A stretch of DNA of 33,870 nt from a virus (Duplodnaviria; Caudoviricetes). The stretch lies in the IMG/VR virus record IMGVR_UViG_3300042520_000495, positions 1-33,870 of that record; one strand, 5' to 3'. Below the pieces are notes generated by a model. The model was not told the origin of the DNA and made no database searches. It was given only the letters and a program-made list of their open reading frames with translations. A program made the position numbers and the translations under genes. Numbering within the stretch: position 1 is the stretch's first letter; every line of letters starts with the position of its first letter. Below are positions 4,904 to 33,061 of the stretch, piece after piece.

Positions 4904-5186
4904 TAAAAACAAGAAGCCGTCAAAGATTGTAAAGGCGGTGAAAGAAACGAAGGCCGAATTAAAGGCGTTGCTCCCGCAGTCTGATCCCGTCAATCATCCC
5001 GCGCACTACAAGGCCGGTGGCGTTGAGACCATAGACTTCATCGAAGCGAAGGATCTGAACTACCGCTTGGGTAACGTCATCAAGTACGTGAGCCGCGCCG
5101 GTAAGAAGAACTCTGATCCTGTGCAGGATCTTGAGAAGGCCGCGTGGTATCTGAATCGTGAGATCGAAGCGAGGAAGTCTGCGTGA
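4791..5186 (+). CDS. DUF3310 (SaV-like) protein with N-terminal HTH-like segment
   Basis: DPVNHPAHY...ETIDFIE...GNVIKYVSRAGKK...DLEKAAWYL signature; AAGGAG RBS. Confidence 0.85.
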   Translation: MSKKAKILSLLKSGKSINTVAKLVKVKPQYVYYVRWIDKNKKPSKIVKAVKETKAELKALLPQSDPVNHPAHYKAGGVETIDFIEAKDLNYRLGNVIKYVSRAGKKNSDPVQDLEKAAWYLNREIEARKSA

Positions 5187-5983
5187 ACACCCCTGCGTTC
5201 AATGACGCATGGAAGGCGTGGGTACTCAGCAATGTTGACCGTGGTTGCTCTAGGCAGTCGATGGTGAACTCAATGGTTGAGGCAGGATGGCCCATAAAAA
5301 TCGCCCGTGGTGTCATTGAATACGTATTGCAGGAGCGAGAAGAGATTGGAGTCGCTAACGTTGTTCCTAAACTAAAGGATATGCCTGCCTCTGTACGATT
5401 ACTTTTATCGCTAAAGACTCCACCTATTCAAGTTTTCTCTAACTTGCTGAGTGAAGACGAATGCGATTTGCTGATTGAGTTAGCCCGTCCAAGGCTGAAG
5501 GACTCATCAGTTGTGGATGGGGATACGGGTAAAAATGTTCCTAGCGATGGAAGGATTAGCGAAGGAATGTTTTTTAGCCTATCCGAAACTCCAGTGATCG
5601 CGCAGATAGAAGATAGGTTGGTAAAGATGTTTGATTGGTTGCCTAAACATCACGAGAGTATTCAAGTGTTGCATTACCTTCCCGGTGGACGGTACGACTC
5701 TCACTACGATTACTTTCGTCCAGATACGCAGAGTGTAGGGAAACTAACTGAAAGAGCGGGGCAACGTTTGGGCACAGTCTTACTTTACCTAAATACACCG
5801 GAGGAAGGCGGGGGCACAGGCTTTACTGATATAGGTCTGGAAGTTGCGGCCCAGAAAGGTAACGCTGTGTTTTTTAGTTATGACAGGCCGCATCCTTCAA
5901 CTAAGACATTACACGCAGGGCTTCCCGTTATGAGAGGGGAGAAATGGGTAGCGACGTTTTGGTTTAGGGAGAAAGCAACATGA
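5183..5983 (+). CDS. prolyl 4-hydroxylase-type 2OG-Fe(II) dioxygenase
   Basis: 'LLSEDECDLLIELARPRL', 'ESIQVLHY', HxD (HYD at 5702-5710), 'TVLLYLN..EEGGGT.F', distal His in 'TLHAGLPV' and 2OG-binding Lys in 'GEKWVAT'. Confidence 0.9.
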   Translation: MNTPAFNDAWKAWVLSNVDRGCSRQSMVNSMVEAGWPIKIARGVIEYVLQEREEIGVANVVPKLKDMPASVRLLLSLKTPPIQVFSNLLSEDECDLLIELARPRLKDSSVVDGDTGKNVPSDGRISEGMFFSLSETPVIAQIEDRLVKMFDWLPKHHESIQVLHYLPGGRYDSHYDYFRPDTQSVGKLTERAGQRLGTVLLYLNTPEEGGGTGFTDIGLEVAAQKGNAVFFSYDRPHPSTKTLHAGLPVMRGEKWVATFWFREKAT

Positions 5984-6192
5984 AACCCAAGAACGAGTTT
6001 GCCTTCCCGCAATTAGAAGGCGACCGTCTTAAATGGTGGGGGCATGGCATGACTTTGCGTGATTACATGGCTGGTTACAGTCTTAACGCATTGATTCAAG
6101 CGCATGGGATTGTCATGCGCCCCGAAGAAGCAGCACGAATTGCGTATACCTACGCAGACGCTATGTTAACCGAAAGAGAGGCTAAAAAATGA
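5980..6192 (+). CDS. small conserved phage protein
   Basis: 'AFP...GMTLRDYMA...A..AY.YADAML.ER' pattern common in phages; ATGA overlaps on both sides. Confidence 0.8.
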   Translation: MKPKNEFAFPQLEGDRLKWWGHGMTLRDYMAGYSLNALIQAHGIVMRPEEAARIAYTYADAMLTEREAKK

Positions 6193-6839
6193 ATTCACTA
6201 CAGATTGGACGACGACGATTCAGTGAGTTGTTCTGGAACATCGTGGATGAGAAAGTGAGCAATGTACCGTGGCAAGAAATAGAAGACATGATTGCGGATA
6301 GGCAGGAGTATCGCTGCAAGGCTGAATACAACACCGGGTCGCTGAGTGTGAACGATGCTGCTGAGTTGTATCGTTTAGTAAAGTTTTTTAAGCCAAGCAC
6401 CATTGCTGAAGTAGGTACGTTTATTGGTGTATCTACGATGGCGATGTACATGGCCGACAAATATGTGTCTATCGATACTTGCGACATGTCAAACGACATT
6501 CCTAACTCGTTTGTAGATACTAGGGGCATGGTGACTTACTTTCCAAAAACTTCATCAACAGAGATGTTCAAGAAGTTGGCAGAAGAGGAAAATCCTAGTA
6601 TCGATCTGATCTATCTGGATGGTCGCTTGAGTCAGCCCGACATCGAACCCTTGTCTAAAATTGTCTGCGAGAAGACCGTGTTCGTGTTGGATGACTTTGA
6701 GGGCATTGAGAAGGGCGTGGCTAACGCGCTGATGCTTGAGCATCCAAGTCGTGTACTGATCTACCCGCGTGGGGACAACAAGACCGCTGTGTCAATGCCC
6801 GTTGGACTAATCCAACTTGTTCCGCAGGAGATGACATGA
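6189..6839 (+). CDS. class I SAM-dependent methyltransferase (Methyltransf_24-like)
   Basis: Motif I 'AEVGTFIGVST', 'DLIYLDG' and 'VFVLDD'. Confidence 0.8.
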   Translation: MNSLQIGRRRFSELFWNIVDEKVSNVPWQEIEDMIADRQEYRCKAEYNTGSLSVNDAAELYRLVKFFKPSTIAEVGTFIGVSTMAMYMADKYVSIDTCDMSNDIPNSFVDTRGMVTYFPKTSSTEMFKKLAEEENPSIDLIYLDGRLSQPDIEPLSKIVCEKTVFVLDDFEGIEKGVANALMLEHPSRVLIYPRGDNKTAVSMPVGLIQLVPQEMT

Positions 6840-6955
6840 TCCGTACATTTATCGATTGGTGGAGACGGCGTAAAGCCGAGGCACACCGAGAGTGGGCGCA
6901 CGTGCCTAATCCAGAGTGGGCGGCGAAGCGTGGGACAGGGAGAGAATACTGGTGA
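6836..6955 (+). CDS. small Trp/Arg-rich protein (39 aa, MIRTFIDWWRRRKAEAHREWAHVPNPEWAAKRGTGREYW)
   Basis: Not in the ORF track. ATGA overlap upstream, GTGA overlap downstream, AGGAG RBS. Confidence 0.6.
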   Translation: MIRTFIDWWRRRKAEAHREWAHVPNPEWAAKRGTGREYW

Positions 6956-8820
6956 GCGAAGAAAAACCTAAAACCCAAACCCTCATGGACATGGCAAAAC
7001 GTGTCTATGAGGTAGGATTTGAAGCAGCGAAAGAGGGCAAGTACGACGATGCAATTGGCTACTTGGAAAACTTAAATAGCGTTGTCCCGATTTTGACTGC
7101 CTCTGCGCTACAGGCGGGGCGATGCCATTGGGAGATGCACCGTTGGGAATCGGCTAGGAAGTACTTTGATCTAGCCGTAAGACTTGAACCGACTAACGAC
7201 GATGCAGGATGGACTGTTGGACTTCTAGCCCTGCAGATGGGCGACTTCAAGAAAGGGTGGGAGGGTTACGAGCGGCGGTGGGGGAGTAAGTCATTCAAGT
7301 CTCCCATACTCCGTACTAAGCATCCGCAGTGGGAGCGGGGCAAGGGGCTACGTCGCCCGATTGTCTGGTGTGAGCAGGGTATCGGTGATCAGATTTTGTA
7401 TGGGTCGCTGATTGAAGCACTGGCACGGGAGGTGGATGAAGTCACCGTTATGATTGATCTGCGGATAGCGAATCTCTTTCAGCGCGGATGCAAGGCTAAG
7501 AATGTTAAGTTCCTATCTCACAATGCGCGGGTCAAGATGTCTGAGCATGACTCGCACTTGCCAATAGCCTCACTAGCGCAGCACTTCATTAAGTCAGTTC
7601 ATGACATTGATAAAAATGTTTCGTCCGGCTACGTGAAGGCTGACCCAGAGCGTGTGGCTTTGCTACGCAAGGAGTATGGCATCCGCGAAGACGAGTTCGT
7701 GGTTGGGCTGTCTTGGACAAGTACTGCGCCTGTGATTGGCACGCACAAGTCAGTTCCGTTGGAGAAGTTTCGACCGATTCTGGATATGCCGCACTTGAAG
7801 TTCATCAACTTACAGTACGGGGACTCACAGAGAGACGGCGATGGGTTTCATCCAAGTCTCATCACCACGCACATTGATACCTTTTTCGACATGGAGAATG
7901 TCGCTGCGCTCATAGAGATGTGTAATGTCGTGATCTCACCATCGTGTGCGACAGTGCATCTGGCAGGGGCGATGGGCAAGGATGTTCTACTCCTTGACGC
8001 CAACAAACTCTGGTACTGGAACAACCGTGTTGGCAACGAGAGCCTCTGGTACTCTGGCGTTAAGATCTTTCAGCGTGAGAACATGAACGCTCCATGGGAC
8101 TTGCAGTTGTATCAAGTACAGAATGAACTTGAGGTTATCTTGGGGCAGCGCACGAGGAATAGGCAGACGTTTGTGTTCTTTCACGTAGGGCAGGACATTT
8201 CGTATCCACAGAAAATGGTCAAGTCCATTCTGCGTCACAACCCCGACGCAGACATCATCATGTGTACCGACACCGATACGCCGGATGTGATGGGCATTAC
8301 GGCTAGGGCTGAAAGCGAAGTAGATAAAGACAATTTGATGTATTCGCGGATGAAAGCCTATTCGCTACTTGCAATCGATACACCGGCGCTTTACATGGAC
8401 ACAGACATGATAGTGCTTAACAAGATTGCGGTTAAAGATTTACTTGCAGACAGAGATGTCGCTTTTTTGCAGAGAACTTTTAATTCAGACGCAGAGTTTA
8501 ACATTGAACAACGCGGCATTCGGTTTGACGAATACAAAGGCAAGACGTTGGGAGAATTGTACCCATACGTGGGCTGTATAGTCGTAGCAAAAAGCGAAGT
8601 GTGGAAGGATCTTCTAAGCATATACGACGAGTTGGATACCAAGTTCAAGAAGTGGTACGGCGATCAAGAAGCGTTACGTATCTTTTTTGAGCGGCACTCC
8701 GAGAGAGTAGCAGTGATAACTGAGTCTGAGTACGGGTGCCTACCAGAATATGCACACGCCGATGCCAAGATCCTGCACTACAAGGGTGAAGCACGTAAGA
8801 AACTATTTGAGGGTGTATGA
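6952..8820 (+). CDS. TPR + GT-B (GT9-like) + GT-A glycosyltransferase fusion
   Basis: N-terminal TPRs ending 'GDFKKGWEGYERRW'. GT9-like part: 'WCEQGIGDQI', 'VGLSW', 'FINLQYG', 'ATVHLAGAMGK'. C-terminal GT-A part: DxD (YMDTDM), 'WYGDQEAL', 'ILHYKG'. GTG 6952 chosen as start because it overlaps the upstream stop. Confidence 0.85.
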   Translation: MSEEKPKTQTLMDMAKRVYEVGFEAAKEGKYDDAIGYLENLNSVVPILTASALQAGRCHWEMHRWESARKYFDLAVRLEPTNDDAGWTVGLLALQMGDFKKGWEGYERRWGSKSFKSPILRTKHPQWERGKGLRRPIVWCEQGIGDQILYGSLIEALAREVDEVTVMIDLRIANLFQRGCKAKNVKFLSHNARVKMSEHDSHLPIASLAQHFIKSVHDIDKNVSSGYVKADPERVALLRKEYGIREDEFVVGLSWTSTAPVIGTHKSVPLEKFRPILDMPHLKFINLQYGDSQRDGDGFHPSLITTHIDTFFDMENVAALIEMCNVVISPSCATVHLAGAMGKDVLLLDANKLWYWNNRVGNESLWYSGVKIFQRENMNAPWDLQLYQVQNELEVILGQRTRNRQTFVFFHVGQDISYPQKMVKSILRHNPDADIIMCTDTDTPDVMGITARAESEVDKDNLMYSRMKAYSLLAIDTPALYMDTDMIVLNKIAVKDLLADRDVAFLQRTFNSDAEFNIEQRGIRFDEYKGKTLGELYPYVGCIVVAKSEVWKDLLSIYDELDTKFKKWYGDQEALRIFFERHSERVAVITESEYGCLPEYAHADAKILHYKGEARKKLFEGV

Positions 8821-9002
8821 AAAATACAGATGACGATTGGGATCGTGAGTGGGATCGTATGTCCCACACCATATCGGAGTATCGACAAGAGATACGCGAG
8901 ATGCGTGAGCGAATCAGATGGTACGTGTCTCGCATTGAAGAACTGGAAACTGAGGTGAGACAGTTGAAAAGTACAGACGCAAGATGGGTGCAAGAGCCAT
9001 GA
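8817..9002 (+). CDS. small coiled-coil hypothetical protein
   Basis: ATGA-coupled on both sides; heptad-like E/R/L-rich helix. Confidence 0.65.
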   Translation: MKNTDDDWDREWDRMSHTISEYRQEIREMRERIRWYVSRIEELETEVRQLKSTDARWVQEP

Positions 9003-9103
9003 TTAGCGAAGACATCATCCGACTGGCGCGAGAGGCTCTAGGCAAGCCGGAACCTAGTGCTTTTGTTAAACCCGGCATAAAAGTTGGAGTTAGAACCCAA
9101 TGA
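8999..9103 (+). CDS. very small protein (34 aa, MISEDIIRLAREALGKPEPSAFVKPGIKVGVRTQ), possibly a remnant
   Basis: Not in the ORF track. ATGA overlaps on both sides. 'EDIIRLAREA' resembles a frequent N-terminus of small phage proteins. Confidence 0.5.
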   Translation: MISEDIIRLAREALGKPEPSAFVKPGIKVGVRTQ

Positions 9104-9246
9104 AGGAACAAGAAGTGCTTATTTTGATTACGAAGGCAGCGGAAACTGAAAAAGCCGACGATGCTTTGAAGTTTTCACAGGCAGCGTGTAACGCCGCAAA
9201 CGCGCTATGTGCGTTAGCCTCAGCGAAAACTATTAAAAGTTCGTAA
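9100..9246 (+). CDS. small hypothetical protein (48 aa, MKEQEVLILITKAAETEKADDALKFSQAACNAANALCALASAKTIKSS)
   Basis: Not in the ORF track. ATGA overlap and GGAG upstream; helical-hairpin-like sequence. Confidence 0.6.
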   Translation: MKEQEVLILITKAAETEKADDALKFSQAACNAANALCALASAKTIKSS

Positions 9247-9263
9247 CAACGGGGGGTTGTCCG

Positions 9264-9557
9264 GTGAGCGACCACAGACTTTTGGAACTCGCTGCGAAGG
9301 CGGCGGGGATGGAGTACAGCGACAGGCAATGGAGCGAGTACGACGAAGATTATGTAACTTGGAACCCCCTCACTGATGACGGAGATGCGCTGCGGTTGGC
9401 GGTGAAGTTGAAACTCAAAATTCGCTTTTACACTAACGATGATGTTGTTGTTGGAGATGGCGAAGACGCTTACGAGTGCATGAGCGGCGAGCCTTATTCT
9501 GCCACCCGCCGGGCCATTGTCAAAGCCGCAGCAGAGATTGGGGAGAACATGAAATGA
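9264..9557 (+). CDS. conserved phage hypothetical protein
   Basis: 'LLELAAKAAG...WNPLTDDGDALRLAVKL...ATRRAIVKAAAEIG' pattern, widespread in proteobacterial phages. Confidence 0.8.
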   Translation: MSDHRLLELAAKAAGMEYSDRQWSEYDEDYVTWNPLTDDGDALRLAVKLKLKIRFYTNDDVVVGDGEDAYECMSGEPYSATRRAIVKAAAEIGENMK

Positions 9558-9913
9558 CATCTGTGCATCAGAAGAAAGAACTAGGCCGTTGGCTACTGCC
9601 GGGCGCGGAGGGTGTCCAGCAGTTTGGAGTAACCCGCAAACCCCACGCATTTCACCGCGCCATGATGCGGATATGTTTTGGCTGGCAGTGGATGGACAAG
9701 GAACTGACTTGTGACTACTGCAACCTTTACCCAAGGCTACGTAAGAAAACACACTGCGAAGAGTGCGCCCGGTCGCTGGAAGGCGGCGAGTTATATAACG
9801 TGATCAAACTTGCCGAGAAAGCCGGGATCGTATTCAGAATGGGCAGCACGGAAATCACCGTGCAAAAATTGGAGAAGTTTTTCGCTCTCGCACAGGGGAT
9901 CAAGAAGACATGA
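9554..9913 (+). CDS. hypothetical protein with CxxC...CxxC zinc-finger-like motif
   Basis: Start reassigned to ATG 9554 (ATGA overlap). CDYC...CEEC. Confidence 0.65.
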   Translation: MTSVHQKKELGRWLLPGAEGVQQFGVTRKPHAFHRAMMRICFGWQWMDKELTCDYCNLYPRLRKKTHCEECARSLEGGELYNVIKLAEKAGIVFRMGSTEITVQKLEKFFALAQGIKKT

Positions 9914-10587
9914 AAATCTTTATTGGTTGGGACAGCCGCGAAGACATCGCGTACCAAGTGTGCCGTCACTCTCTGCTCAAGCATACGTCCGTGCCGCTCG
10001 ACATTCAGCCGATCAAGCAGTCGGAGATGCGCGAACGGAACTTGTACTGGCGTGAGCATGACCCGCTGTCATCGACAGAGTTTTCCTTCACCCGTTTCCT
10101 CGTGCCGCACCTTGCAGGATACAAGGGGTGGGCGGTGTTCATGGACTGTGACTTTCTCTGGCGAGGCGATGTCGCTGCGCTGCAGGACTACATGAACCCG
10201 TACTACGGCGCTGTCGTGGTCAAGCATGACTACAAGCCGAAAGAGTCAACGAAGATGGACGGGGCGGCGCAACATCAGTACCCGCGCAAGAATTGGTCGA
10301 GCATGATCTTGTGGAACTGTGAGCATCTGCACACAAAAACAGTCACGCCCGAACTCGTAAACCGCGAGAGCGGAATGTACCTACATCAACTGCGGTTCTT
10401 GTGGGACGCATGTATCGGTGAGTTGCCCATTGCATACAACTATCTGGAAGGGTGGCACACCCGCGATGACTGCCCGAACCCGCAAGCCGTTCACTTCACA
10501 CGAGGTGGGCCGTGGTTCCGCGACTACGTAGACGTTGAATACGGCAAAGAGTGGATGAATTTAGCCAAGGAGATCGTAAATGAATAG
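9910..10587 (+). CDS. GT-A fold glycosyltransferase (GT8-related, CDI-like)
   Basis: 'IFIGWDSRE', 'STEFSFTRFLVP', DxD in 'FMDCDFL', 'YPRKNWSS' and 'VHFTRGGPWF'. Confidence 0.85.
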   Translation: MKIFIGWDSREDIAYQVCRHSLLKHTSVPLDIQPIKQSEMRERNLYWREHDPLSSTEFSFTRFLVPHLAGYKGWAVFMDCDFLWRGDVAALQDYMNPYYGAVVVKHDYKPKESTKMDGAAQHQYPRKNWSSMILWNCEHLHTKTVTPELVNRESGMYLHQLRFLWDACIGELPIAYNYLEGWHTRDDCPNPQAVHFTRGGPWFRDYVDVEYGKEWMNLAKEIVNE

Positions 10588-10840
10588 CGAAGACGAAGCG
10601 TATTTAGAAGTGCCAGAGGAGCACGTTAAAAAAATTGCTGCACCGAATACGGTGTGGGCGAAGATTAGCGACGACGGTAAACTGGAAGTTCTCCGTTGGG
10701 ACATCATAGAGATATACGCACTAGAATACGACACGCTTAGACGGGCTGGTAAAGAGGCAGCGCAGACGCACGTGATGTGTAAGTTGCTTGTATTGGTGCG
10801 CGATCAAGTACGAAAAGAAAGGCACGCCAGTGGAAACTGA
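10580..10840 (+). CDS. hypothetical protein
   Basis: AAGGAG RBS; 8-nt overlap with the upstream gene. Confidence 0.65.
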   Translation: MNSEDEAYLEVPEEHVKKIAAPNTVWAKISDDGKLEVLRWDIIEIYALEYDTLRRAGKEAAQTHVMCKLLVLVRDQVRKERHASGN

Positions 10841-11009
10841 AGACGATATCCTTGACTTGATCCGCGTGTTGCCTAACGAGATTAACGACACTGGAACAAC
10901 TACAGAATTCAAATTCCTCACAGTGGGCAGCGTGTTGTGGGCTTGCCGTGAGGAGATCATCAAACTGCGAGAAGAAAACGCGAAGTTAAAAGCGAAGAGG
11001 AAGCAATGA
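10830..11009 (+). CDS. small hypothetical protein
   Basis: In-frame GTG at 10830 (METEDDILDLIR...) is more plausible than the track start at 10788; ATGA-coupled to the next gene. Confidence 0.55.
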   Translation: METEDDILDLIRVLPNEINDTGTTTEFKFLTVGSVLWACREEIIKLREENAKLKAKRKQ

Positions 11010-11554
11010 TTTATTCGGGTGCAGGGCCGTTACCAAGACATACGTATTGTTATGTTCAGCCACACACGTTTGGTAACAGTGACTGGGAGCGGGTGGCGTG
11101 GTTTGGGCTAGTGAGCCATCCCGGCCGTACTTGGGGTTGTCACGTAATGTTGGAGTGTGGGGCGGTGTATCGGAACGTGCCGCTGCATAGACTCATGCAC
11201 AAGGTATCGACCACGACAATGAATTGGATGCCATGCGATAGCCAGACTTGGGACTGCTACGGCCATCACTTTAGCGTGGTGGAGTATCCATTTTTTGAAG
11301 CCGTGCCAATGCGCGTTCGCTTGCGTTCTAAAGAAGAACTAACTGGGCGGTACATGTTCACAGCCATACCGATGCTTGATGGATTTAGTTTGGAACCGGA
11401 GCAGTCCAAAGAGTTTTACTTCATCAAGTTAGACAACGGTAGGTTCACAGCGCAGCCCACTAATCATGTACTCGTGCAAGACAAGTCGTTCATCACTGAA
11501 TCTGAGTGGCCTAGGCTTGAGCGTCAGACAGAAACATGGAGCGTCGATCCATGA
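11006..11554 (+). CDS. conserved phage hypothetical protein
   Basis: 'GAVYRNVPLH', 'QTWDCY', 'GRYMFT' and 'LDNGRFTAQPTN' resemble an uncharacterised family of aquatic phage proteins. Confidence 0.75.
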   Translation: MIYSGAGPLPRHTYCYVQPHTFGNSDWERVAWFGLVSHPGRTWGCHVMLECGAVYRNVPLHRLMHKVSTTTMNWMPCDSQTWDCYGHHFSVVEYPFFEAVPMRVRLRSKEELTGRYMFTAIPMLDGFSLEPEQSKEFYFIKLDNGRFTAQPTNHVLVQDKSFITESEWPRLERQTETWSVDP

Positions 11555-21196: not shown

Positions 21197-24100
21197 CTAC
21201 TGTTTTACCCGACTCACTGCGCCTTCTCGATAGCGTTTTGGAATTGAGACACCATCAAGGGCTTCTTCCTCTGCGCGGCCACGCTGTTTAAAAGACTGCT
21301 CAAGTTCATCCCAATCAATCGTAGCGTTGAATTCGGCGGCGGTTTGGGTTTTGTTCCACTTGCTGATATCTTGCAGGGCTTTTATATAGCCTTCTTGATC
21401 GCCTTGCGACCACGCAGCGTAAGCATTCTTAAATAGCGCCTGTCGGCGTTCAATAACTTCATTGACGATTTCTTTTCTGGCCCCTGCACGAGCAGAGGCT
21501 TTCTGTACTTGAGTCGGCGTAAACCCAAATGCTTGCATGAACAACTCATAGGCGTCCAGATCTTCGGTAATCGGCTTACCGTCTTTAGTCGTCACGCCAT
21601 CTTGGATGTAACGCCATGTTTTCAGAAAGTTACGCGCAGCAACGGGCATTGCTTTCTCAAGCGCCCGATCATAGTACCCTTCCTGAAAATCTCGTATCGC
21701 ATCAATACGAGTACGGATTGACGCCCACGGTGCGCCCAAAAACTGCTCAAGGGCAAAATATTCTATGCCGATTTCGTCCATTCGCCTTGGGTCATCGCGC
21801 CAGAACATGCCGTTGAACCCGGTACGCGAGGCTATATCTAATCCAAGAAGTTCACTGACTGGGCCTCGCATAGCCAAAGCCCCAAGTGCTTGTTTACGGT
21901 CTTCTTCGGGATCAGTAATTTCATCATCGGCATCACCAAACATGGCAGCGGATATAGCACTCGCTCCCGCAGCCAAAGTCGTAGCCAGCCCGTAAAAAGG
22001 CAAGCCCTGAATTCCCGCGAATACAAACGCCCCGCCAATGGTACCAAGCCATTGTTTAATGGCGACCTTCCTAAACTCCCGATCCACTGCCTCCGCTTCA
22101 GCCTTCTCTTGCGGGTTCATCCCAGTGGTATCAGTCCTAGACCCTTCAAGCGCATCTCGCAGCAGGCTCAACTGAAGTGCATACATGGCGCGAGCGTAAC
22201 GCTTAAAGGTCAGTGCAATTTTCAATACAGGATGCTGGAACACACGCGGGCTAAGTTCAGTTAGCGTTTCACTGTTAGCCTTTTCTGCAAGACGGATTGC
22301 CTTATCAATCGCGTCCTGTTCAACCGCACGGCCAGTCCGTCCTTCAAGTCGGTTCTTCTCCATCTCCAACCGGAACGCGGCGATCATAGTCACTTCACGG
22401 TTGAACCGTTCAGTGTTCTGGAATGTCCATCCAAGCAATTGCTTAGAGTAGTTAAGCATCCCCATGTAGTCTTTCTGATCAATATCCCGATCCCGCGCTT
22501 CGGTAATATCGTAAGCAGTCGAATGCTTGATCGCGCCCTGCTGAATGGCAGACTTGTACAGACGGCCTAACGGAGAGTTAGGCGGAATCTTGGCAGGATC
22601 AAACGCGGTTCTATCAGACTGCGGGAACTTCTTAGGCCGAGTCGGTTGCGCGTCGTTATCCCAGCCGCCTTGCATAAACATCGCCATCGCATCTTGGATA
22701 GCCGAAGATGTTTTAGCGTAGCCGTATTCTCCCCCCAACAACGGATATACAGTCGTACCAATGTTCGTGATGTTGGTCACAGCGGAGGAGATATTGCCCA
22801 TGATGAAGTCGAAATAACTCCAAAAGACAATATTGTTTACCCACTTGTTGTAAGTAGGTTCTCTGAGAAAACTAAGCCGCTTACCGATTTCGGCTTCAAC
22901 TTGTTGAGCGGTCATGCTGCCATCTTTAGCAACATCTTCCTTGAGCAATTTAGTGGCTTGGTCAAGTTGCGGAGTGAATTCAAGATTGGTCAATTGCCCC
23001 GCCATGCGAGAAGCCACAATCGCATATACTTTCAGCATGTCAGTTTCAGCGCCTTTATAACCTTCGCGCTTACGAAACTGCTGGCGCACAGACGACGCCG
23101 GAATAGAGTCCAAGAATGTTTTATACAGAGTGTTCTTTAACTCAACAGGAACAGGAATTCCGTACTTGTCTTTGTAGTACTTTTCAAGTTCAGAGTTAAT
23201 TTCGCTAAAGAACCCGTAAGTGCCAGCACCCGGCCCCTTCTCGCCCATCGCGTCTTCTATTTTTTCGTAGGTCTGAATCGAAGCCGCAGGGATTCCTGCC
23301 TTGATAAGTTCTTGTTTAGCAATTACACGGGCGCGATTACTTGTGTACGAATCAACAACAGTGTTGTTATTTCGATCTTGATAACGCAGCCAGTACTCGC
23401 CCTCACGATACAACGGCAGATAAATCTTTAGCCTACGAGCCTCAATCTCACGGCGCAAAATATTGGCAGCGGTGGGCGGCAGGTTCTGAGTTATGAGTTC
23501 TAAGTAGCGGTCTGCCATCTTGCGGTAAGCGTCTACCATTTCAAAGTAAACGTCCTGCAACGGCTGAGGCAACCGCTCAAATTCTTTCGTCAGCGGATCA
23601 AGCGACTTGTAGTCAGGGTTACGTACAACAACACCGTTTTTAATGATAGTCGGGCGAAAGTCGATCTGTTCTTCTGTTGACTCCAACGCGATTCGGTAAA
23701 ACCGTTGGATAACTGCACCCTTGTACTGTTTGTCAGACAGTACTTCATTCCATTTTTCAATGTTAGCGCCTATCTGATTGCGAATTTCGCGCAATTTTAC
23801 CGCACGATCTATAACGCCACGCATTAAACCTTTAAGAGCAGGAAGTTTCTTACCGAAGATCTCTACCAACTCAGGCAGGGAACGAAGCGCAAGAAACGCC
23901 GGGCGAGTCTTATTACTCATGCCCTCTACGACGGCGGCGGTCTGTTCCGCTCGCTCAGGAGTCAACGCCCCAAGATCTTTCAGTTTCTCTAGCGGTGTGG
24001 TTAACAGATCGCGCTCAAGTTTCTTAGCCTGAGCGACCGTGCGTAGACCCACTACCTCGCGCCTGCCCTTGGTAACTTTCTCCTGCGCCAGACGCAGGAC

Positions 24101-27022
24101 TTGGGCCACATCGTTGTTGGAATAGGCGAACTTAATGCCCATCGCTCTACCGGCACGACGGATGAACGCCGCTACGCGGTTGAACGCAGCACGGATACCG
24201 GCTTCTTTAATGGGGCCAGCCTCGGCCTTAGAAGCAAGAACCTCTTCCACTGCCTGTGCATTGCTCATGCCGGGGAGTTTGACCGCATCCGCCGCAGCGC
24301 GAGTCGCCGGGTTAGTGTCGTAGATATCGTTCAGGATGTCGTCAAGACGAGTGCGGAACTTTTGGCGCAAACCAAAATGGCCTAGACTTTCATGGAGGAC
24401 AGTCGCATGTACGTCAGCCCGGTCATTAGCGCGACTGGCGATAACGTAGGTCTTACCTTCTTTGTAAAAACCTTTGGTGTTCGGTTTGATCTGCACGCCT
24501 TGTGGAATACGCGCATCGTTCTCATCGTCAAGAACAACAATTTCTGGTGCGTTAGTCCAGCCCTGAGCGGCTTCGTTTGCGGCCTGCTCGACATCAGGCT
24601 TTGCCATAACAGGCGACGGCGGCACTTGCCCCGTGCGGAACAGATCATTGGGATCAACTTCAATTAAGGGAGTTGGGGAAACTTTAAATTTTGAGGCGGT
24701 TTTTTCTTCTGCTTCGGTTAATTTTTTAACTTCAGCCTCGTACGCAGCAAAAGCAGCGTTTTCATAATCGCCAAGCCCATACTCTTGCAACGTATCCCGC
24801 ACATTATCTAAGTATGCGCCAATGGAATCATTTAAATCACGGAATGAATTTCGATCAGCAAAAGCACTGTTTGCGTTTCCTTTAGCAATTTCTACGGCTT
24901 CTTGCTGTTTGGCTTTACGATCTTTAATTTCTTTTTCAAGGTCTTCTATTTCACGCTGCCTTAATGCAGGCTCGACTCTTTCCGCTCTTGGAGCAACATC
25001 AGCAGCAACTCGTGGAGCAGGCTCCACTCTTTCACTTTCAACTGGCGCAACTTCTGGTCTAACGGGTTCTGGTCCCGGTAAAGGCAATTCAGGGCTTCTT
25101 CCAACTGTTCCAACGTCAGGCGTTTCAGTAACTGTTGGTGTTGTTTGGACGGATACACTCGGAGCCTCCCTAGGTTGCCCCATCGTGATACTGCGCTTTC
25201 CTTTCTTGATAGGTGTGACAACCCCTTCAAGTTCCATTCGTTTAAGAAGTTCAGTGGCTTTCTTGAGCCCAACGTTAAGCGCCTTCTGAATCGTTGCAGG
25301 GGCGGGATTACCAGACTGCAGAACAACTTCAACCGCTTGTCGATAAAGCGGATCTTCAACAGTGGTCGGCTCCATTGGCAGCGCGACTTGAGCGCCTGCG
25401 GCCTGCGGAATGGGAGCAACACCTCCTGACGGTGCGGGAACCGTAACAGGTTGAGTCTTGGGTGCAGTCTCTGCGCCGGGGACACCAATAGCCGCTGCCA
25501 GTGGCTGATCAATTTGAAGAGTCTGCTGCGCTCCTGCTACCTGCGGAATCCCTGTAATTGGCGTAGCCGGTGTGGTCGGCACTACCGGGGGAGGGGTCTG
25601 TATTAACTGCTGCTGAGCAGTCGCAGTTTGCGGAATTGGAGGAACGGGTGCTGCGGGCGGGGGAGATACCGGCGTGCCTGACAGTTCTTGAAGTCTTAAA
25701 CGAATGTAAGGAATGGCTTCTTTGAGCCTATCAGCCTTTGCAAGGAGCCTTTGTTCAACCTCAACAGGATCGAGTCCCGTCTTACGAGCAACTTCTTCGT
25801 TCTCTTCAACTTTGGCAGGATCAGCAAGATCAATCGAAAGTCTTTCTAACTCAGTTTCTGTTAATTTAAGCGCCTCAGCCGCTTTCTTTGGGGTGTCGAG
25901 TTTATTTAGGGCTGAACGCAGTTCGGGGGAAGCCCCCTCAAAAGACGTAGGCAGTGGAGGCTCAGCGGCTTTGGCTGCGGCTTCCTGTTCTTTCTTTACC
26001 GCTTCGATCTCTTCCTGCGTTTCAGAAACTATGTCAGCAGGAGGAGCAGTCTCTTGTACTTTGTCCCTAGCAGCAGATCTACTAGCAAGCCTACCGACAG
26101 CACCTAGTGGAGCCATCAATCCAGTCTGATACGCAACCTCGCCATACTCTCGCATGGCGTCATCACTTGTAAGCGGAAGCCCTGCTTGAGCGCGTTCTAA
26201 TGCTTGCTGAGCAACTTCGGTGGGAACTTCGGCAGCCACACCTACGACGGCACCTTTGGCTACTGTCTTGACTAAACCTTCTTTAGCCAGTTTTTCAGCG
26301 GCCTCGATATCTCCTTTTGCAAGTAAATCGTCTACTTTCTTACCAAGTTCACCAAAAAGTTTTTTACCTAAAACGCGTCCAACGACAATAAATTGACTTG
26401 CTACATCAAGCGCGGCTTGCGGAACAGCAGCGGCAGCGGCGGCTGTACGAGAAATATCCACATCCCGGCCTGCAGCGATGTCTTCTTCGGCCTGACGCTG
26501 AATGTTAGAACCGTACTGCTGCAAGAAAGACGGAGCAACGGCACCGGCTGTACTACCAACCAACGCGCCAATAGGCCCAAGTGGAGCGCCAGCAGCCGAA
26601 CCTGCTATAGCCCCCGCCACGGTAGCACCCATCTGCGGCAACTGTTCTGCGATAGCACCGGGGATACTGCCGACAACTTCGCCCGCAGCGCCTAACGCGC
26701 CACGTTCACCGTAGGCTTGCTTAACTTTTTCAAGACTCGCGCCTTCGCCGTACTCTTCAGTGATTCCTCTGCTACGCTCAGCAGCGGCAAGTGCGGCTTT
26801 CTCGGCATCGCTTAATGATTCAATAGCAGCGCGACCACTTGAGATCATCGACTCAAGGCCACTCATGAACCTATCGACTACGCCGCCTTTTTCCTCTTCA
26901 GGTTTAGCCTGTTCTTCTTGCAGGGCTTCTCTATACGCAGCGGCAACCGTCTCAAACTCCGGAGTACCTTTTTTATTTCGGTTGCGTACAATCCACGCGG
27001 CGTAATCGTCAGCCGTTGCCAC
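21197..27022 (-). CDS. large polyvalent-type virion/ejection protein (FtsK-gamma-like domain, zincin-like HExxxH, PLxRxG region)
   Basis: 1941 aa; last gene of the structural arm. Ala/Gly-rich N-terminal region, 'DPLYRQAV...MELEGVV' winged helix, 'LHESLGHFGL...EEVLA' and 'YLPLYREGEYWL'. Confidence 0.8.
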   Translation of the reverse strand: MATADDYAAWIVRNRNKKGTPEFETVAAAYREALQEEQAKPEEEKGGVVDRFMSGLESMISSGRAAIESLSDAEKAALAAAERSRGITEEYGEGASLEKVKQAYGERGALGAAGEVVGSIPGAIAEQLPQMGATVAGAIAGSAAGAPLGPIGALVGSTAGAVAPSFLQQYGSNIQRQAEEDIAAGRDVDISRTAAAAAAVPQAALDVASQFIVVGRVLGKKLFGELGKKVDDLLAKGDIEAAEKLAKEGLVKTVAKGAVVGVAAEVPTEVAQQALERAQAGLPLTSDDAMREYGEVAYQTGLMAPLGAVGRLASRSAARDKVQETAPPADIVSETQEEIEAVKKEQEAAAKAAEPPLPTSFEGASPELRSALNKLDTPKKAAEALKLTETELERLSIDLADPAKVEENEEVARKTGLDPVEVEQRLLAKADRLKEAIPYIRLRLQELSGTPVSPPPAAPVPPIPQTATAQQQLIQTPPPVVPTTPATPITGIPQVAGAQQTLQIDQPLAAAIGVPGAETAPKTQPVTVPAPSGGVAPIPQAAGAQVALPMEPTTVEDPLYRQAVEVVLQSGNPAPATIQKALNVGLKKATELLKRMELEGVVTPIKKGKRSITMGQPREAPSVSVQTTPTVTETPDVGTVGRSPELPLPGPEPVRPEVAPVESERVEPAPRVAADVAPRAERVEPALRQREIEDLEKEIKDRKAKQQEAVEIAKGNANSAFADRNSFRDLNDSIGAYLDNVRDTLQEYGLGDYENAAFAAYEAEVKKLTEAEEKTASKFKVSPTPLIEVDPNDLFRTGQVPPSPVMAKPDVEQAANEAAQGWTNAPEIVVLDDENDARIPQGVQIKPNTKGFYKEGKTYVIASRANDRADVHATVLHESLGHFGLRQKFRTRLDDILNDIYDTNPATRAAADAVKLPGMSNAQAVEEVLASKAEAGPIKEAGIRAAFNRVAAFIRRAGRAMGIKFAYSNNDVAQVLRLAQEKVTKGRREVVGLRTVAQAKKLERDLLTTPLEKLKDLGALTPERAEQTAAVVEGMSNKTRPAFLALRSLPELVEIFGKKLPALKGLMRGVIDRAVKLREIRNQIGANIEKWNEVLSDKQYKGAVIQRFYRIALESTEEQIDFRPTIIKNGVVVRNPDYKSLDPLTKEFERLPQPLQDVYFEMVDAYRKMADRYLELITQNLPPTAANILRREIEARRLKIYLPLYREGEYWLRYQDRNNNTVVDSYTSNRARVIAKQELIKAGIPAASIQTYEKIEDAMGEKGPGAGTYGFFSEINSELEKYYKDKYGIPVPVELKNTLYKTFLDSIPASSVRQQFRKREGYKGAETDMLKVYAIVASRMAGQLTNLEFTPQLDQATKLLKEDVAKDGSMTAQQVEAEIGKRLSFLREPTYNKWVNNIVFWSYFDFIMGNISSAVTNITNIGTTVYPLLGGEYGYAKTSSAIQDAMAMFMQGGWDNDAQPTRPKKFPQSDRTAFDPAKIPPNSPLGRLYKSAIQQGAIKHSTAYDITEARDRDIDQKDYMGMLNYSKQLLGWTFQNTERFNREVTMIAAFRLEMEKNRLEGRTGRAVEQDAIDKAIRLAEKANSETLTELSPRVFQHPVLKIALTFKRYARAMYALQLSLLRDALEGSRTDTTGMNPQEKAEAEAVDREFRKVAIKQWLGTIGGAFVFAGIQGLPFYGLATTLAAGASAISAAMFGDADDEITDPEEDRKQALGALAMRGPVSELLGLDIASRTGFNGMFWRDDPRRMDEIGIEYFALEQFLGAPWASIRTRIDAIRDFQEGYYDRALEKAMPVAARNFLKTWRYIQDGVTTKDGKPITEDLDAYELFMQAFGFTPTQVQKASARAGARKEIVNEVIERRQALFKNAYAAWSQGDQEGYIKALQDISKWNKTQTAAEFNATIDWDELEQSFKQRGRAEEEALDGVSIPKRYREGAVSRVKQ

Positions 27023-29473: not shown

Positions 29474-32400
29474 TTAGCGCCGTGATTTCTTGCGCGATGG
29501 GACAGGTAAAAATTTATCTACGTTAACTTGCGGGGCTTGCTTTGACTTACCCGTTCGCGCTTTACGAATCAGCGCCATCATCTGATACAGTTTTTTAGCA
29601 CCGGCCTCAGTCGATCCGTTGCCAAGATGCGACACCACATCAGCGGGGATAACGAACTCGCCATCCGCCAACGCAGCACGCTGCACACCCTTACCCCGTA
29701 TCACGGCAGGAATATCATCAGACATACCGTCTCCCGGTCCTCGCAGGAGTTTACCACCGGCTTGGTATTCCGGCATGGGCGCCATACCGCCTCGGGCGAA
29801 GCCAAAGTTGTATCCGTCAGCGGGGTTCCGCGCTCCGCCAATCCTAGGCAAATCGGCTATTCCGCCCATTTGATACTTTCTAATACGTCCTTTTTTCACA
29901 TGTCCTCCAGCAAACCCGCCTTTACCATCTGATAAATCTTTATAACATCCTAGCCATGGGTCAGCCTCATAAGGAACCCCACGTTCGTCATAACAAAGTC
30001 CATCTTCTCCAGCAGGACTATCTTCCCACCACCAAACGCAGCGACCTACTCGTGCGTCAAAAAACTGCCCAAACGAGCACTGCGGTTGCGGTACGTTGCC
30101 ATAATCAGGTGCGTCCCCACTCGGTTCACGACCTTCAGGAATCGGCGCACAGTCGTCAGAATAAATCGGGTTACCGTCACCGTCGTAGCCCATGAATTGC
30201 TTTGAGTATCCAAACGGGCATGACCCATCCGCGTTTTTAGGCACCCTACCTTCTGACGGAGTTGGGGTCGGCGTTGGAGTGGGTTCAGGTGTAGGCTCCG
30301 GCGTAGGAGTCGGAGCGGGTTCGGAGGTTACTCCGCAAGGCGAAGGCTCCCCAAGTCCACGGGTGTAAGTCATACCATCCGGGCATCTGCCGTAGCAAAC
30401 GTCGCCTACTTGCACTTCATCCGGGGCGCACTGTTCTTGTCCGCCACCGCCACCGGGCGCAGGGGCTGGAGTAGGTTCGGGTGTCGGAGTAGGTGTTGGT
30501 TCGGGAGTTGGCGCAGGGGTGGGTTCCGGCGCAGGGGTCGGAGCCGGGGTGGGTTCCGGTGCAGGGGTCGGAGCCGGGGTGGGTTCCGGTGCAGGGGTCG
30601 GAGCCGGGGTTGGAGCAGGAGTTGGAGCAGGAGTCGGAGCGGGAGTCGGAGCCGGGGTTGGCGTCTCCCTAATAGGGCAATTCTCCCAAGATGGAATAAG
30701 CGAGCCATCTGGGCATCTTTTAAGCAGCGTCTCTGGCGAAGGGGCCGGAGTAGGTGCGGGGGTAGGCGTGGGTGCGGGCGTTGGAGCCGGTGCAGGACTT
30801 TGTTTTTTACGGCAAGCACCTAGCCCACCGTCTGCTCGCGGGTCATATTCGTATTCATTACCGTACTGCGCCTGACAGTCAGTATCACTGACTCCGTTAA
30901 ATCGGCACCGGCCTATCTCATAGTCATAGACATACCCCGGTTCAGCGCATCGGGGATCTTGCGTAGGCTCCGGCTCAGTAGGCGTCGGTACGGGTGTAGG
31001 AGTCGGAGTGGGTTCAGGTGTAGGTGCAGGCTCCGGCGCAGGGGTTGGAGTAGGTGTTGGTGCGGGTGTAGGTTCAGGTGTAGGAGTCGGAGTGGGTGCG
31101 GGCGTAGGCTCCGGCGCGGGAGTCGGAGTAGGTGTAGGTTCGGGGGCTGGAGTCGGGCAGACTTCCCATGAGGGAACAATAGACCCGTCAGGACAGGTCT
31201 TGAGTAATGGTTCTTCCTCCTCCGGTGGGGTCGGAGTAGGTGTAGGTGCAGGCTCCGGCGCAGGGGTTGGAGTAGGAGCGGGTTCCGGCGCAGGGGTTGG
31301 AGTGGGTGTAGGTGTAGGCTCCGGTGTAGGAGTCGGAGTGGGCGTAGGCGCGGGTGTAGGTGTAGGTGTAGGCTCCGGTGTAGGAGTCGGAGCGGGCGTA
31401 GGCGCGGGTGTAGGGGTTGGAGCCGGGGTTGGAGCCGGAGCAGGCGTAGTTCCGCCAGTATCACCACCCGGCGTAGTACCTCCGCCACCTGTACCCGGAC
31501 CTGTACCACCGCCGGTACCCGGACCAGATCCGCCGCCATCGCCGCCACCATCGCCGCCCCCAGTACCGGGACTCTTTACACAGGGATCAAGCCCCGCTTC
31601 CCATCTGGCAAAATCAAAAGTAAAGCCCGGCTGACACTCGGGTTTAGACGGAGGCGGTGCGGGGGTTGGAGTCGTGGGAGGCTCCCACGGATATTTAACT
31701 ACTGGGCCATAAACAGTCTCCGCACGTTGCGGAGTGGTTCTTAAATACTCATCAAGATTCAGATCCATCGGCTTCGCGGCAGTCGGCGGTCTGAGCAAAG
31801 ACTGATACCAATCGGCGAGTTCTTGATCGAACGGCATACCATTGGTATCAGCCTTCACTCCAGTCGGAGCAGGCTGAGGAAGTCGATTAACCGGATGGCG
31901 CTTTAAGTCATCTTCGCCCTGAACTGGGGCGCTGCCAGATTCGGCAGCGGCGCGATACCATTCAGTCAGGGCGGGGGCGAAAGGGAGGAGGCTTTTGAAA
32001 TACTCCTCTTTGGCTTTTTCAGAATCAGCAGTACCACCTTCAGCGAAGGTTTCTTCGCCTGTGTAAATGTCTACTTTAGGCTCATACCCGTTACCCTGTG
32101 TGCGGACCATCGGATAAGAAAAATTCGGCTGTGGCACTACCCCGCCAACCGCCATACCGCGTCGGTAATAATCTTCTTCCTCATCAGGTGGACGTTCTGG
32201 TGGAGGAGACTGGTACGGCGAACTCTGCCGCATCCCTTGTTGCGGGTTCTGCGTATAGCCCGGATATTCAGTGCCGTAGCCGTAATCAGCGTAACCGCCT
32301 TCAATAAAGTACGGTTGGCCCGGCTCACCAAAACGCGGGTTGACTCGACCGGGGCTGTACTGAACATTCCTATACCCAACCGGAGTCGGCTTAGGCATCC

Positions 32401-33061
32401 CGCCTCGCGGGTTCATCTTCTGCTCCGCCTTGTTCAAGGCGTACATCGTAATAGCCTGCATGATCGGGTCTTTGGTGAGCCCGAAAAGCCCTTTGGGCTG
32501 GCCGCCCTGTTGCGGAGCGCCTAGAAGTCCACGCAGACCACTAGAAACATCTTTGCCCAGAGGCTGCTGTACTGTGGGTTTTACCGGTTCAACGCCAATA
32601 CCGGGGGCAATCTCACCAAAATCTTCAGGACCGGGAGGACGTTCTCTATACCCAGTTGGACCGGCGATCCCCGGAATCCTACGCTGGGCTTCTTCTGCAA
32701 GACCTCCAAGAATCCGCGTACCGGCATAGGCTTTCATGCCTGCCTCAAGACCTTTTTGCAGATCTCCCTTCACCGCGCCATACGCGGCTCCGGCAAGCAT
32801 GGCGGTCGTTTGCGGGTTTTGGATGAGAGTCTTTCCAACAGACTGAACGCCTTTGACTACGGTGTTTAATATATTAGTAAGCCACCCGGCTTCCGGCAGT
32901 CCCGTAGCAGGATTACGCGGCATCTCCATACCTTGAGCGCGAGCCAAAAACTGAAGATTGCGTACTTCTTCAGGTGACATGTGGACAAGTGTGCTATCTG
33001 GTCCACGGCCTTGGGAGGCAAGGAGGGACGCAAGTCCTGCTGCGGGAGGTTGCTGGTTCAT
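29474..33061 (-). CDS. putative virion protein with Pro-Thr/Pro-Ala repeats and Cys-pair modules
   Basis: N-terminal '[16 protein letters not shown]...NPATGLPEA' and C-terminal '[12 protein letters not shown]...[20 protein letters not shown]' bracket a low-complexity insert. Confidence 0.8.
30245..31690 (-). repeat. coding low-complexity repeat region: (PT/PA/PE)n tracts plus one Gly-rich tract
   Basis: Tracts at about 30245-30320, 30455-30662, 30735-30795, 30960-31155, 31222-31445 and 31650-31685; Gly-rich tract at 31450-31565. Confidence 0.95.
30516..30610. repeat. 30-bp tandem repeat, about 3.2 copies
   Basis: GGGTTCCGG(T/C)GCAGGGGTCGGAGCCGGGGT at 30521, 30551 and 30581, with one mismatch overall. 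Confidence 0.95.

Follow-up and report, generated by a model that had tools for sequence, protein, structure and literature searches.

A nested set of glycosylation genes, with an optional prolyl 4-hydroxylase, in a variable slot of freshwater podophage genomes

Introduction

What does a freshwater bacteriophage modify with three glycosyltransferase (GT) domains, a methyltransferase and a prolyl 4-hydroxylase (P4H), and do these enzymes belong to one pathway? The question is raised by the IMG/VR virus record IMGVR_UViG_3300042520_000495 (Caudoviricetes), whose 33,870 bases are referred to here as the window. The initial annotation of this DNA proposed that the P4H makes hydroxyproline (Hyp) in the proline-rich repeat of a 1195-aa virion protein and that the GT domains and the methyltransferase build a glycan there, in the manner of hydroxyproline-rich glycoproteins (HRGPs). 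Comparison with relatives confirmed what had been observed in part, and likewise supports the interpretation in part: the enzymes form a nested glycosylation kit in which the P4H is an optional extra.

The window is a fragment of a genome from a freshwater podophage clade with genomes of about 60–63 kb (the complete members G013 and G028 have 62–63 kb), and the stretch is present in 20 lake or freshwater metagenome runs. Replication genes (ATPase, VWA, DUF3310, DNA polymerase A, helicase and primase) occupy its plus strand, and an ejection cluster its minus strand. The enzyme genes occupy a variable slot before the DNA polymerase gene, with bounds from DUF3310/VRR to the polymerase. The host is probably a Burkholderiales bacterium, since the nearest named cellular relatives of the P4H are from Comamonas and Acidovorax.

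Gene content of the slot

Relatives were gathered with GT-A, P4H, TPR-GT and polymerase queries, and 189 of the 288 sources span the slot and give 83 haplotypes. The gene for a GT-B transferase headed by a TPR domain and a gene for an 86-aa protein are both present in 67 haplotypes and both absent from 16, and are never found apart; this pair is called the core. The methyltransferase and the GT-A domain fused to the C-terminus of the TPR-GT-B protein are coupled in the same way (52 haplotypes with both, 31 with neither), and the stand-alone GT-A gene, present in 52 haplotypes, is accompanied by the core in every one of them. The less frequent genes also occur always with the core, namely P4H (8/8), GT60 (8/8), the OX13 oxygenase (13/13), the second methyltransferase MT16 (9/9), a sulfotransferase (3/3) and FkbM (2 haplotypes), whereas a GNAT gene is not tied to it (core present in 14/18). 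The kit is strictly nested across the haplotypes. Eight of the 83 contain the core only, which implies that the GT-B transferase can act first. The pairing is not accounted for by simple adjacency, because the paired genes are not neighbours in the window: GT-B separates the methyltransferase from the C-terminal GT-A, and the stand-alone GT-A separates GT-B from the 86-aa gene.

The P4H is found in only 8 of the 83 haplotypes, as two alleles, and is missing from the same-species strain L005. The core occurs without P4H in 59 of 67 haplotypes and without all seven families of 2-oxoglutarate (2OG) oxygenases scored in 46 of 67. The glycan can thus do without hydroxyproline and without the P4H, which is an optional extra. 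No PF13640 gene was found anywhere in four of the five long GT-bearing genomes tested; the fifth, G013, has two 2OG-Fe(II) oxygenases right behind a Gly-rich tail-fibre-like gene (34257-35425). In Skp1 and HRGP systems the priming GT depends on the P4H; no such dependence was found here, although a host P4H could stand in.

The slots of relatives also hold a GT60-family GlcNAc-transferase (PF11397, E 5e-48; L092:5542-6540 and L168:13346-14956), which in one case is fused to a methyltransferase.

Predicted enzymes

The four enzymes named in the initial annotation stand (Table 1). The fusion is recovered both in the structure model and in fold matches of its domains. Its GT-B domain is closest to 3tov (Z 17.7, rmsd 3.1, 251 residues aligned), followed by the lipopolysaccharide (LPS) heptosyltransferases WaaF (Z 17.0) and WaaC (Z 15.6), while the protein heptosyltransferase TibC (4rap) gives Z 15.2, rmsd 3.3, 245 aligned residues and 11% identity, so that the LPS enzymes score equal or higher. 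TPR domains are protein-binding modules, and a TPR domain on a transferase points to a protein acceptor. The model is in line with a TPR domain that is likely to bind a protein, and no obvious signal or membrane segment is seen in it. Cellular TPR-GT-B relatives often neighbour other TPR genes, with TPR-GT41 genes alongside in 2 of the 12 loci scanned. Phage relatives carry a form of about 390 aa without the C-terminal GT-A. The GT-B domain is likely to be the priming transferase and the fused GT-A domain, which resembles glycogenin (Z 16.5), the PBCV-1 capsid GT 2p6w (Z 15.8) and the Skp1 galactosyltransferase 6mw8 (Z 15.3), is likely to elongate. The methyltransferase, which its profile places in the class I O-methyltransferases, probably methylates the sugar added by this GT-A domain, as their joint presence suggests.

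PDB sequence searches with the stand-alone GT-A gave no match, and it is therefore assigned by fold. Foldseek matched it with WbbM (E 2e-8), LARGE1, UGGT and LgtC; this GT8/GT24-type fold and the DCD motif bear out the claim of a second GT-A enzyme. Its top matches are enzymes that extend sugar acceptors, and the protein is likely to be elongating. Arabidopsis Cdi is described as attaching L-galactose terminally to a glycan side chain (PMC12168206). The 86-aa protein has nine invariant residues in its family, which are mostly hydrophobic and include no Ser, Thr or Asn; for this reason it reads as a folded partner more than as an acceptor, and it is likely to be an adaptor or subunit of the TPR-GT-B transferase. 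Complex prediction of the transferase (residues 13-411) with the 86-aa protein gave 0.15, 0.69 and 0.18 in its runs, the mark being 0.32.

The P4H has the Chlamydomonas P4H-1 (2jig, E 3e-36) and the Bacillus P4H (3itq/5hv0, E 3e-32) as its best solved relatives, followed by human P4HA2 and 5c5t. The iron triad HxD...H and the 2OG-binding Lys are complete (H174, D176, H244 and K254). R124, Y171, R195 and W260, whose positions we take to be those of the peptide groove, match those of 2jig in the alignment and are unchanged in 10/10 homologues. By these features it would be an intact algal/Bacillus-type prolyl 4-hydroxylase of the polyproline-acting class, as had been claimed. It is 45–47% identical to proteins of Comamonadaceae (Comamonas, Acidovorax) over 95% of its length. 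The description of the system as eukaryote-like fits its chemistry at most and not its origin, because the genes are of ordinary proteobacterial types. Nor do the genes form one tightly coupled block: the enzymes are real, but small strain-variable ORFs (8817-9913) and a 70-aa ORF (5980-6192) are interleaved among them.

Table 1. Features of the window relating to the kit and to the proline-rich protein (SAM, S-adenosylmethionine; ORF, open reading frame)
Feature	Position	Strand	Remarks
Prolyl-4-hydroxylase-type Fe(II)/2OG oxygenase	5183..5983	+	266 aa; PF13640 E 3e-16; optional add-on
Class I SAM O-methyltransferase	6189..6839	+	weak alone (PF13578 E 0.008); 28-sequence profile matches 3tr6, E 1.1e-5
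TPR/GT-B/GT-A fusion ORF	6916-8820	+	634 aa; likely start at residue 13 (near 6952); model pLDDT 88
TPR domain of the fusion	6982..7284	+	residues about 23-123
GT9-like GT-B domain of the fusion	7333..8148	+	residues 140-411; kit core
C-terminal GT-A domain of the fusion	8158..8820	+	residues 415-634; DTD motif; GT8/GT77/GT6-like
Small strain-variable phage ORFs	8817..9913	+	about 1.1 kb interleaved in the slot; outside the kit
Stand-alone GT-A, GT8/GT24 type	9910..10587	+	225 aa; CDI-like cluster; DCD, NWSS and HFTRGGP motifs
86-aa protein, no known family	10580..10840	+	missed in the initial annotation, just outside its coordinates
Likely internal ejection protein	29474..33061	-	1195 aa; conserved ends, hypervariable middle; Thr/Ala/Glu-Pro runs 30257-31447

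Immediately before the polymerase gene lies a conserved 182-aa ORF (11006-11554; PHROG 3704, labelled ferredoxin), whose presence is, by inspection, independent of the GT core. Promoter and terminator scans were at chance level (3 vs 8.0 and 8 vs 7.3, respectively).

The proline-rich protein and the hydroxylase

The protein proposed as the substrate is the 1195-aa product of the gene that heads the ejection cluster. The next gene belongs to PHROG 4287 ('DNA ejection protein', E 1e-18), with a PLxRFG gene two genes further on, so the protein is likely to be internal and ejected; its description as a virion protein fits insofar as it likely belongs to the ejection cluster, not as a surface protein. 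The proline repeat, given previously as a few hundred residues of PTPAPEPT at 30245-31690, is real: it consists of 248 residues of alternating X-Pro runs at 30257-31447, and the literal PTPAPEPT occurs 5 times.

From genome to genome the middle of this protein varies between Gly/Met-rich, Cys-rich, polyproline, Pro-Pro-Gly and Thr-Pro sequence. Within the species of the window, L313 (1814-5518) and L462 (1-1902) have Gly-Thr, Glu/Lys-Pro and charged coiled-coil repeats with a Thr-Pro count of 7–8, and on the L462 contig the GT-A and polymerase are 100% identical to those of the window, yet the Thr-Pro repeat is gone. Individual lake runs contain both the Thr-Pro and the Glu/Lys-Pro allele. The ejection proteins of G012, G015, G055, L478 and L479 include collagen-like Pro-Pro-Gly runs, stretches of polyproline, and Cys-rich modules in tandem with as many as 78 Cys; so many Cys are odd for an ejection protein likely made in the cytoplasm. 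The PLxRFG protein of the window (21197-27022, minus strand; 1941 aa) contains FtsK-gamma and LPD39 domains and differs between relatives in its N-terminal half.

Covariation of the enzymes with the repeat was examined in 28 dereplicated genomes, with the P4H of G050 added by contig linkage; G017 (different gene order), contigs that do not span the slot, and partial ejection genes except those of G012, G049 and G094 were left out. Whether a genome has the GTs is unrelated to whether its ejection protein is Pro-rich ([[6,15],[2,5]], p=1.0). G044 and G094, with 357–457 Pro-rich residues, lack GTs in the slot, and the rest of the G044 contig is also free of GTs. Together with the exchange of the repeat in L462, these data mean that the GT pathway depends on neither hydroxyproline nor the Pro repeat, and the Pro-rich protein is probably not the GT acceptor.

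The P4H behaves differently from the GTs in this comparison. A Thr-Pro count above 30 is reached in two lineages only (the window and G050; 62–78), which are both P4H-positive against 0/26 of the others (counts ≤14; p=0.003), a result that has a threshold chosen post hoc, after the data were seen, and rests on two lineages. The ejection proteins of the two are not sisters (p-AU 0.033), and within the Cys/Pro-rich subclade alone the P4H goes with Thr-Pro repeats in 2/2 vs 0/6 (p=0.036). It weighs against a link that there are only two P4H alleles, one of which also sits on a G012-like background (L094). The P4H of G050 is assigned by a 99.6% overlap over 8.8–9.3 kb with P4H contigs. In six contig runs chosen for the P4H stretch the Thr-Pro allele is the main one, although the contigs cannot phase it with the P4H, and pieces of the Glu/Lys-Pro allele are present at lower depth in the four of these runs that were compared with it. 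Two raw-read runs did not contain the phage. No new contig with both the P4H and the ejection gene was found in 44 more records or in extra P4H scans. From this pattern, hydroxylation of the Thr-Pro linker in the ejection protein by the P4H is a tentative possibility, less likely than not, and it is very unlikely that the GTs of the window glycosylate this linker.

The complete pathway proposed in the initial annotation, with hydroxyproline made in the 1195-aa repeat and the glycan built there, is quite improbable. It would account for an intact P4H of the polyproline-acting class and for the P4H in both Thr-Pro lineages with their non-sister ejection proteins, and GT60 stands alongside the P4H in 4 of the 8 P4H haplotypes. 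GT60 (PF11397) is the family of the Skp1 hydroxyproline GlcNAc-transferase. The window lacks GT60, however, and with two P4H alleles only, the overlap amounts to one lineage. An HRGP-like pathway is not borne out for the GTs, which are distributed independently of Pro-richness and mostly without P4H, are absent from the Pro-rich G044 and G094, and stay identical in L462 where the repeat has been exchanged, as it has in L313. The G050 lineage counts as P4H-positive through contig overlap, and a bulky glycan would be awkward on a protein likely ejected through the tail. The Hyp-priming families PF11397 (GT60) and PF23452 (HPAT) were both absent from the 31 ORFs of the window, which is a genome fragment, and were found only in relatives or other phages. 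Overall, the coincidence of P4H and Pro repeat seems to be mostly that of a hypervariable linker.

In a different phage group (L103:4633-6617, L101:970-3002, L104:9476-11460 and L105), a P4H of 379 aa, extended at its N-terminus, immediately precedes an HPAT-family gene (PF23452, 38.9 bits vs a cut-off of 23.9; E 8.6e-10 for the L103 copy), and the pair sits as an insertion between the portal and scaffold genes. The four partial contigs of this group showed no Pro-rich ORF, their maximum being 10 Pro per 50 residues. The pair leaves room for phage hydroxyproline glycosylation in that group. In the polymerase-adjacent slot of a further phage (L100:755-2556) a P4H has a C-terminal GT25-like domain, recognised by eye, and is followed by a methyltransferase-like ORF. 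The literature searched, with most subscription journals outside its coverage, gave no paper on phage hydroxyproline glycosylation by title or abstract start.

Virion proteins as possible acceptors

Directly upstream of the major capsid gene, outside the contig of the window, lies a gene that occurs as distinct types. A type of 219–221 aa, with 20–25% Ser plus Thr, is found in 13 of 15 core-positive genomes and in 0 of 3 core-negative ones (p=0.012); the core-negative genomes carry a 210-aa type that is about 50% identical. Between core-negative G044 and core-positive G012 the capsid is 97% identical and the capsid-adjacent protein only 50%, which implies that the type of this protein switches apart from its neighbour. 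The comparison left out G105, G106, G113, G114, G096, G097, G112 and G116, where the slot is not spanned. The major capsid protein, the adaptor and a 151-aa tail-region protein did not differ clearly with the presence of the core, the latter two being available from core-positive genomes only. These patterns make the Ser/Thr-rich capsid-adjacent protein the leading candidate acceptor.

In an unrelated podophage (L001, MW202512.1:21684-25117), GT-A and TPR-GT homologues and an FkbM methyltransferase lie between capsid and tail genes, a position that fits a virion target.

Discussion

Taken together, our data are best explained by a phage-run, nested glycosylation kit that would attach a short, methyl-capped oligosaccharide to a protein, most probably one on the virion surface, and we regard the chances of this explanation as about even. 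Protein-directed glycosylation, already suggested in the initial annotation, stays the best reading in view of the TPR-led transferase and the nested GTs. Starting from the observed folds, motifs and strict hierarchy of gene presence, we infer the following steps. Acceptor recognition and transfer of the first sugar, drawn from a host nucleotide-sugar, would fall to the TPR-GT-B transferase, with a GT9 fold as in the protein heptosyltransferase TibC, and its 86-aa partner; the chain would be lengthened by the two GT-A domains, and the sugar contributed by the fused one would be capped by the O-methyltransferase. Optional genes may then vary the product, among them FkbM and the second methyltransferase, the sulfotransferase, GT60, several 2OG oxygenases and, in the window, the P4H, which as an optional extra could act on the Thr-Pro linker of the ejection protein or on a host protein.

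Several points weigh against this explanation. The haplotypes share ancestry and are not phylogenetically independent, and the query-based collection biases their frequencies. The kit is located among replication genes, at a distance of 16–20 kb from those of the head. GT9, GT8 and O-methyltransferases also occur as LPS-core enzymes. The association with the capsid-adjacent type is post hoc, as four structural proteins were examined, and involves only three core-negative genomes and rows that were not dereplicated; there are also exceptions in G033, core-positive with the short type, and G046 with a 280-aa type. No Pfam match was found for the capsid-adjacent protein, and a role in capsid decoration is suggested by its position only.

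The chemistry could instead be directed at the host surface, where the kit would remodel the LPS core or a receptor glycan from the cytoplasm, for superinfection exclusion or takeover. The nearest solved GT-B folds are, as described above, LPS heptosyltransferases; the stand-alone GT-A resembles WbbM and LgtC, the kit folds are compatible with LPS-core or serotype-conversion cassettes, and the setting among replication genes would favour early expression. The cyanophage S-SCSM2R, with a GT-A homologue of 46% identity, has been interpreted in this way in the account given in PMC12801897. Nonetheless we consider this reading unlikely: the obligatory 86-aa partner and the covariation with the capsid-adjacent type are left unexplained by it, and no integrase was found in the 84 ORFs of three long relatives or the 31 ORFs of the window, a lytic phage presumably gaining less from surface conversion. 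LPS transferases, moreover, are normally without TPR domains.

Distinctly unlikely is a takeover device in which the kit glycosylates, and the P4H hydroxylates, a cytoplasmic host protein such as a translation or defence factor. A TPR-led transferase whose model lacks an obvious signal or membrane segment, its replication-region site, and a full-length P4H of Comamonadaceae type would all suit such a function. A Bacillus P4H reportedly acts on EF-Tu, but the literature search gave no paper on it. No host target is indicated by any of our analyses, and an elongated, methyl-capped and highly variable product would suit a surface signature better than an on/off switch.

The proximity of the kit to the DNA polymerase gene raises the question of DNA as the target, in which case the oxygenase would hydroxylate a base and the GTs and methyltransferase would decorate it against restriction. 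Phage GT-A and GT-B enzymes do glycosylate DNA, and the published clusters, as described in bioRxiv 10.1101/2023.12.21.572611 and PMC13326640, use a base-hydroxylating partner, the former naming 5mYOX/TET, C5-methyltransferase or thymidylate-synthase homologues as neighbours. No thymidylate-synthase, C5-methyltransferase or TET/JBP family was found in the 84 ORFs of G013, G028 and G012 or the 31 ORFs of the window; among the slot oxygenases of relatives, one scores against Tet_JBP, but below the threshold (22 bits vs a cut-off of 35). Most cores are without any oxygenase, and the methyltransferase is of the O-methyltransferase type. Relaxed avoidance of restriction sites, which by our own reasoning would be the expected mark of DNA hypermodification, was not seen: AGCT occurs 0 times in the window vs 138.8 +/- 10.1 expected, and the median observed/expected (O/E) ratio of six-base palindromes is 0.50 in 30 GT-positive contigs vs 0.54 in 9 GT-negative ones (p=0.28). 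Because AGCT is absent, palindrome avoidance is equal with or without GTs and the base-hydroxylating partner is lacking, DNA hypermodification by the kit is very unlikely. The AGCT ratio is 0.00–0.01 in ten contigs and 0.1–0.6 in most others, which suggests host-specific AluI-type restriction.

Glycosylation of a virion protein, the explanation that we prefer, can be compared with known systems. Glycans are reported on capsid and tail-tube subunits of mycobacteriophages (Che8 and relatives; PMC12619734; PMC11256854). As there, phage-encoded GTs lie in a non-structural part of the genome and a virion-subunit glycan is the leading reading; phage-encoded priming and elongating GTs, as expected in virion glycosylation, are represented here by three GT domains in a nested distribution, from which the order of action is deduced. 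Unlike those phages, the present ones are Gram-negative freshwater podophages with a TPR/GT9-like core, an obligatory 86-aa partner and nested methyl, sulfo and hydroxylase options, and the acceptor is a candidate. The GT9 GT-B fold is shared with TibC/Aah and with WaaC/WaaF (Z 15–18, rmsd 3.1–3.6), but identity is only 9–14% and the phage domain is fused to an N-terminal TPR and a C-terminal GT-A domain. The chlorovirus PBCV-1 also encodes a capsid GT-A of similar fold (2p6w, Z 15.8), and chlorovirus, algal and Bacillus P4Hs are of the same class as the P4H here, which in these bacteriophages is optional and close to Comamonadaceae genes. Skp1 modification (P4H, GT60, GT77/GT8) and plant extensin arabinosylation (P4H, HPAT) likewise combine a P4H with GT-A folds, and GT60 occurs in slots of relatives (8/83); the window differs in having neither GT60 nor HPAT and the core in mostly dispensing with P4H. 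Aquatic phage islands of GTs and 2OG oxygenases (S-SCSM2R, Pelagibacter phage Mosig, Caulobacter giants and MW202512) contain GT-A homologues with 34–46% and TPR-GT homologues with 23–27% identity. Those are annotated gene lists, whereas the dependency order of the genes is resolved here.

It is tempting to speculate that two separable tracks exist, namely a TPR/GT9-led, adaptor-dependent, combinatorial methylated or sulfated glycan coat on the capsid, and a P4H-hydroxylated Thr-Pro linker in the ejected protein, with Hyp glycosylated in relatives that combine a P4H with GT60 or an HPAT-family gene. This combination is unlikely; if true, it would be the first hydroxyproline O-glycosylation in bacteriophages, together with a glycan coat in an abundant group of Gram-negative phages.

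Many aquatic phages carry GT and oxygenase genes without an assigned target. The lake clade offers a natural deletion series that orders the pathway into core, elongation, capping and options, exposes an unannotated obligatory partner in the 86-aa protein and names a candidate acceptor. If the proposed virion glycosylation is true, glycan coats would reach Gram-negative phages and vary combinatorially between strains, which would bear on adsorption, particle stability and recognition.

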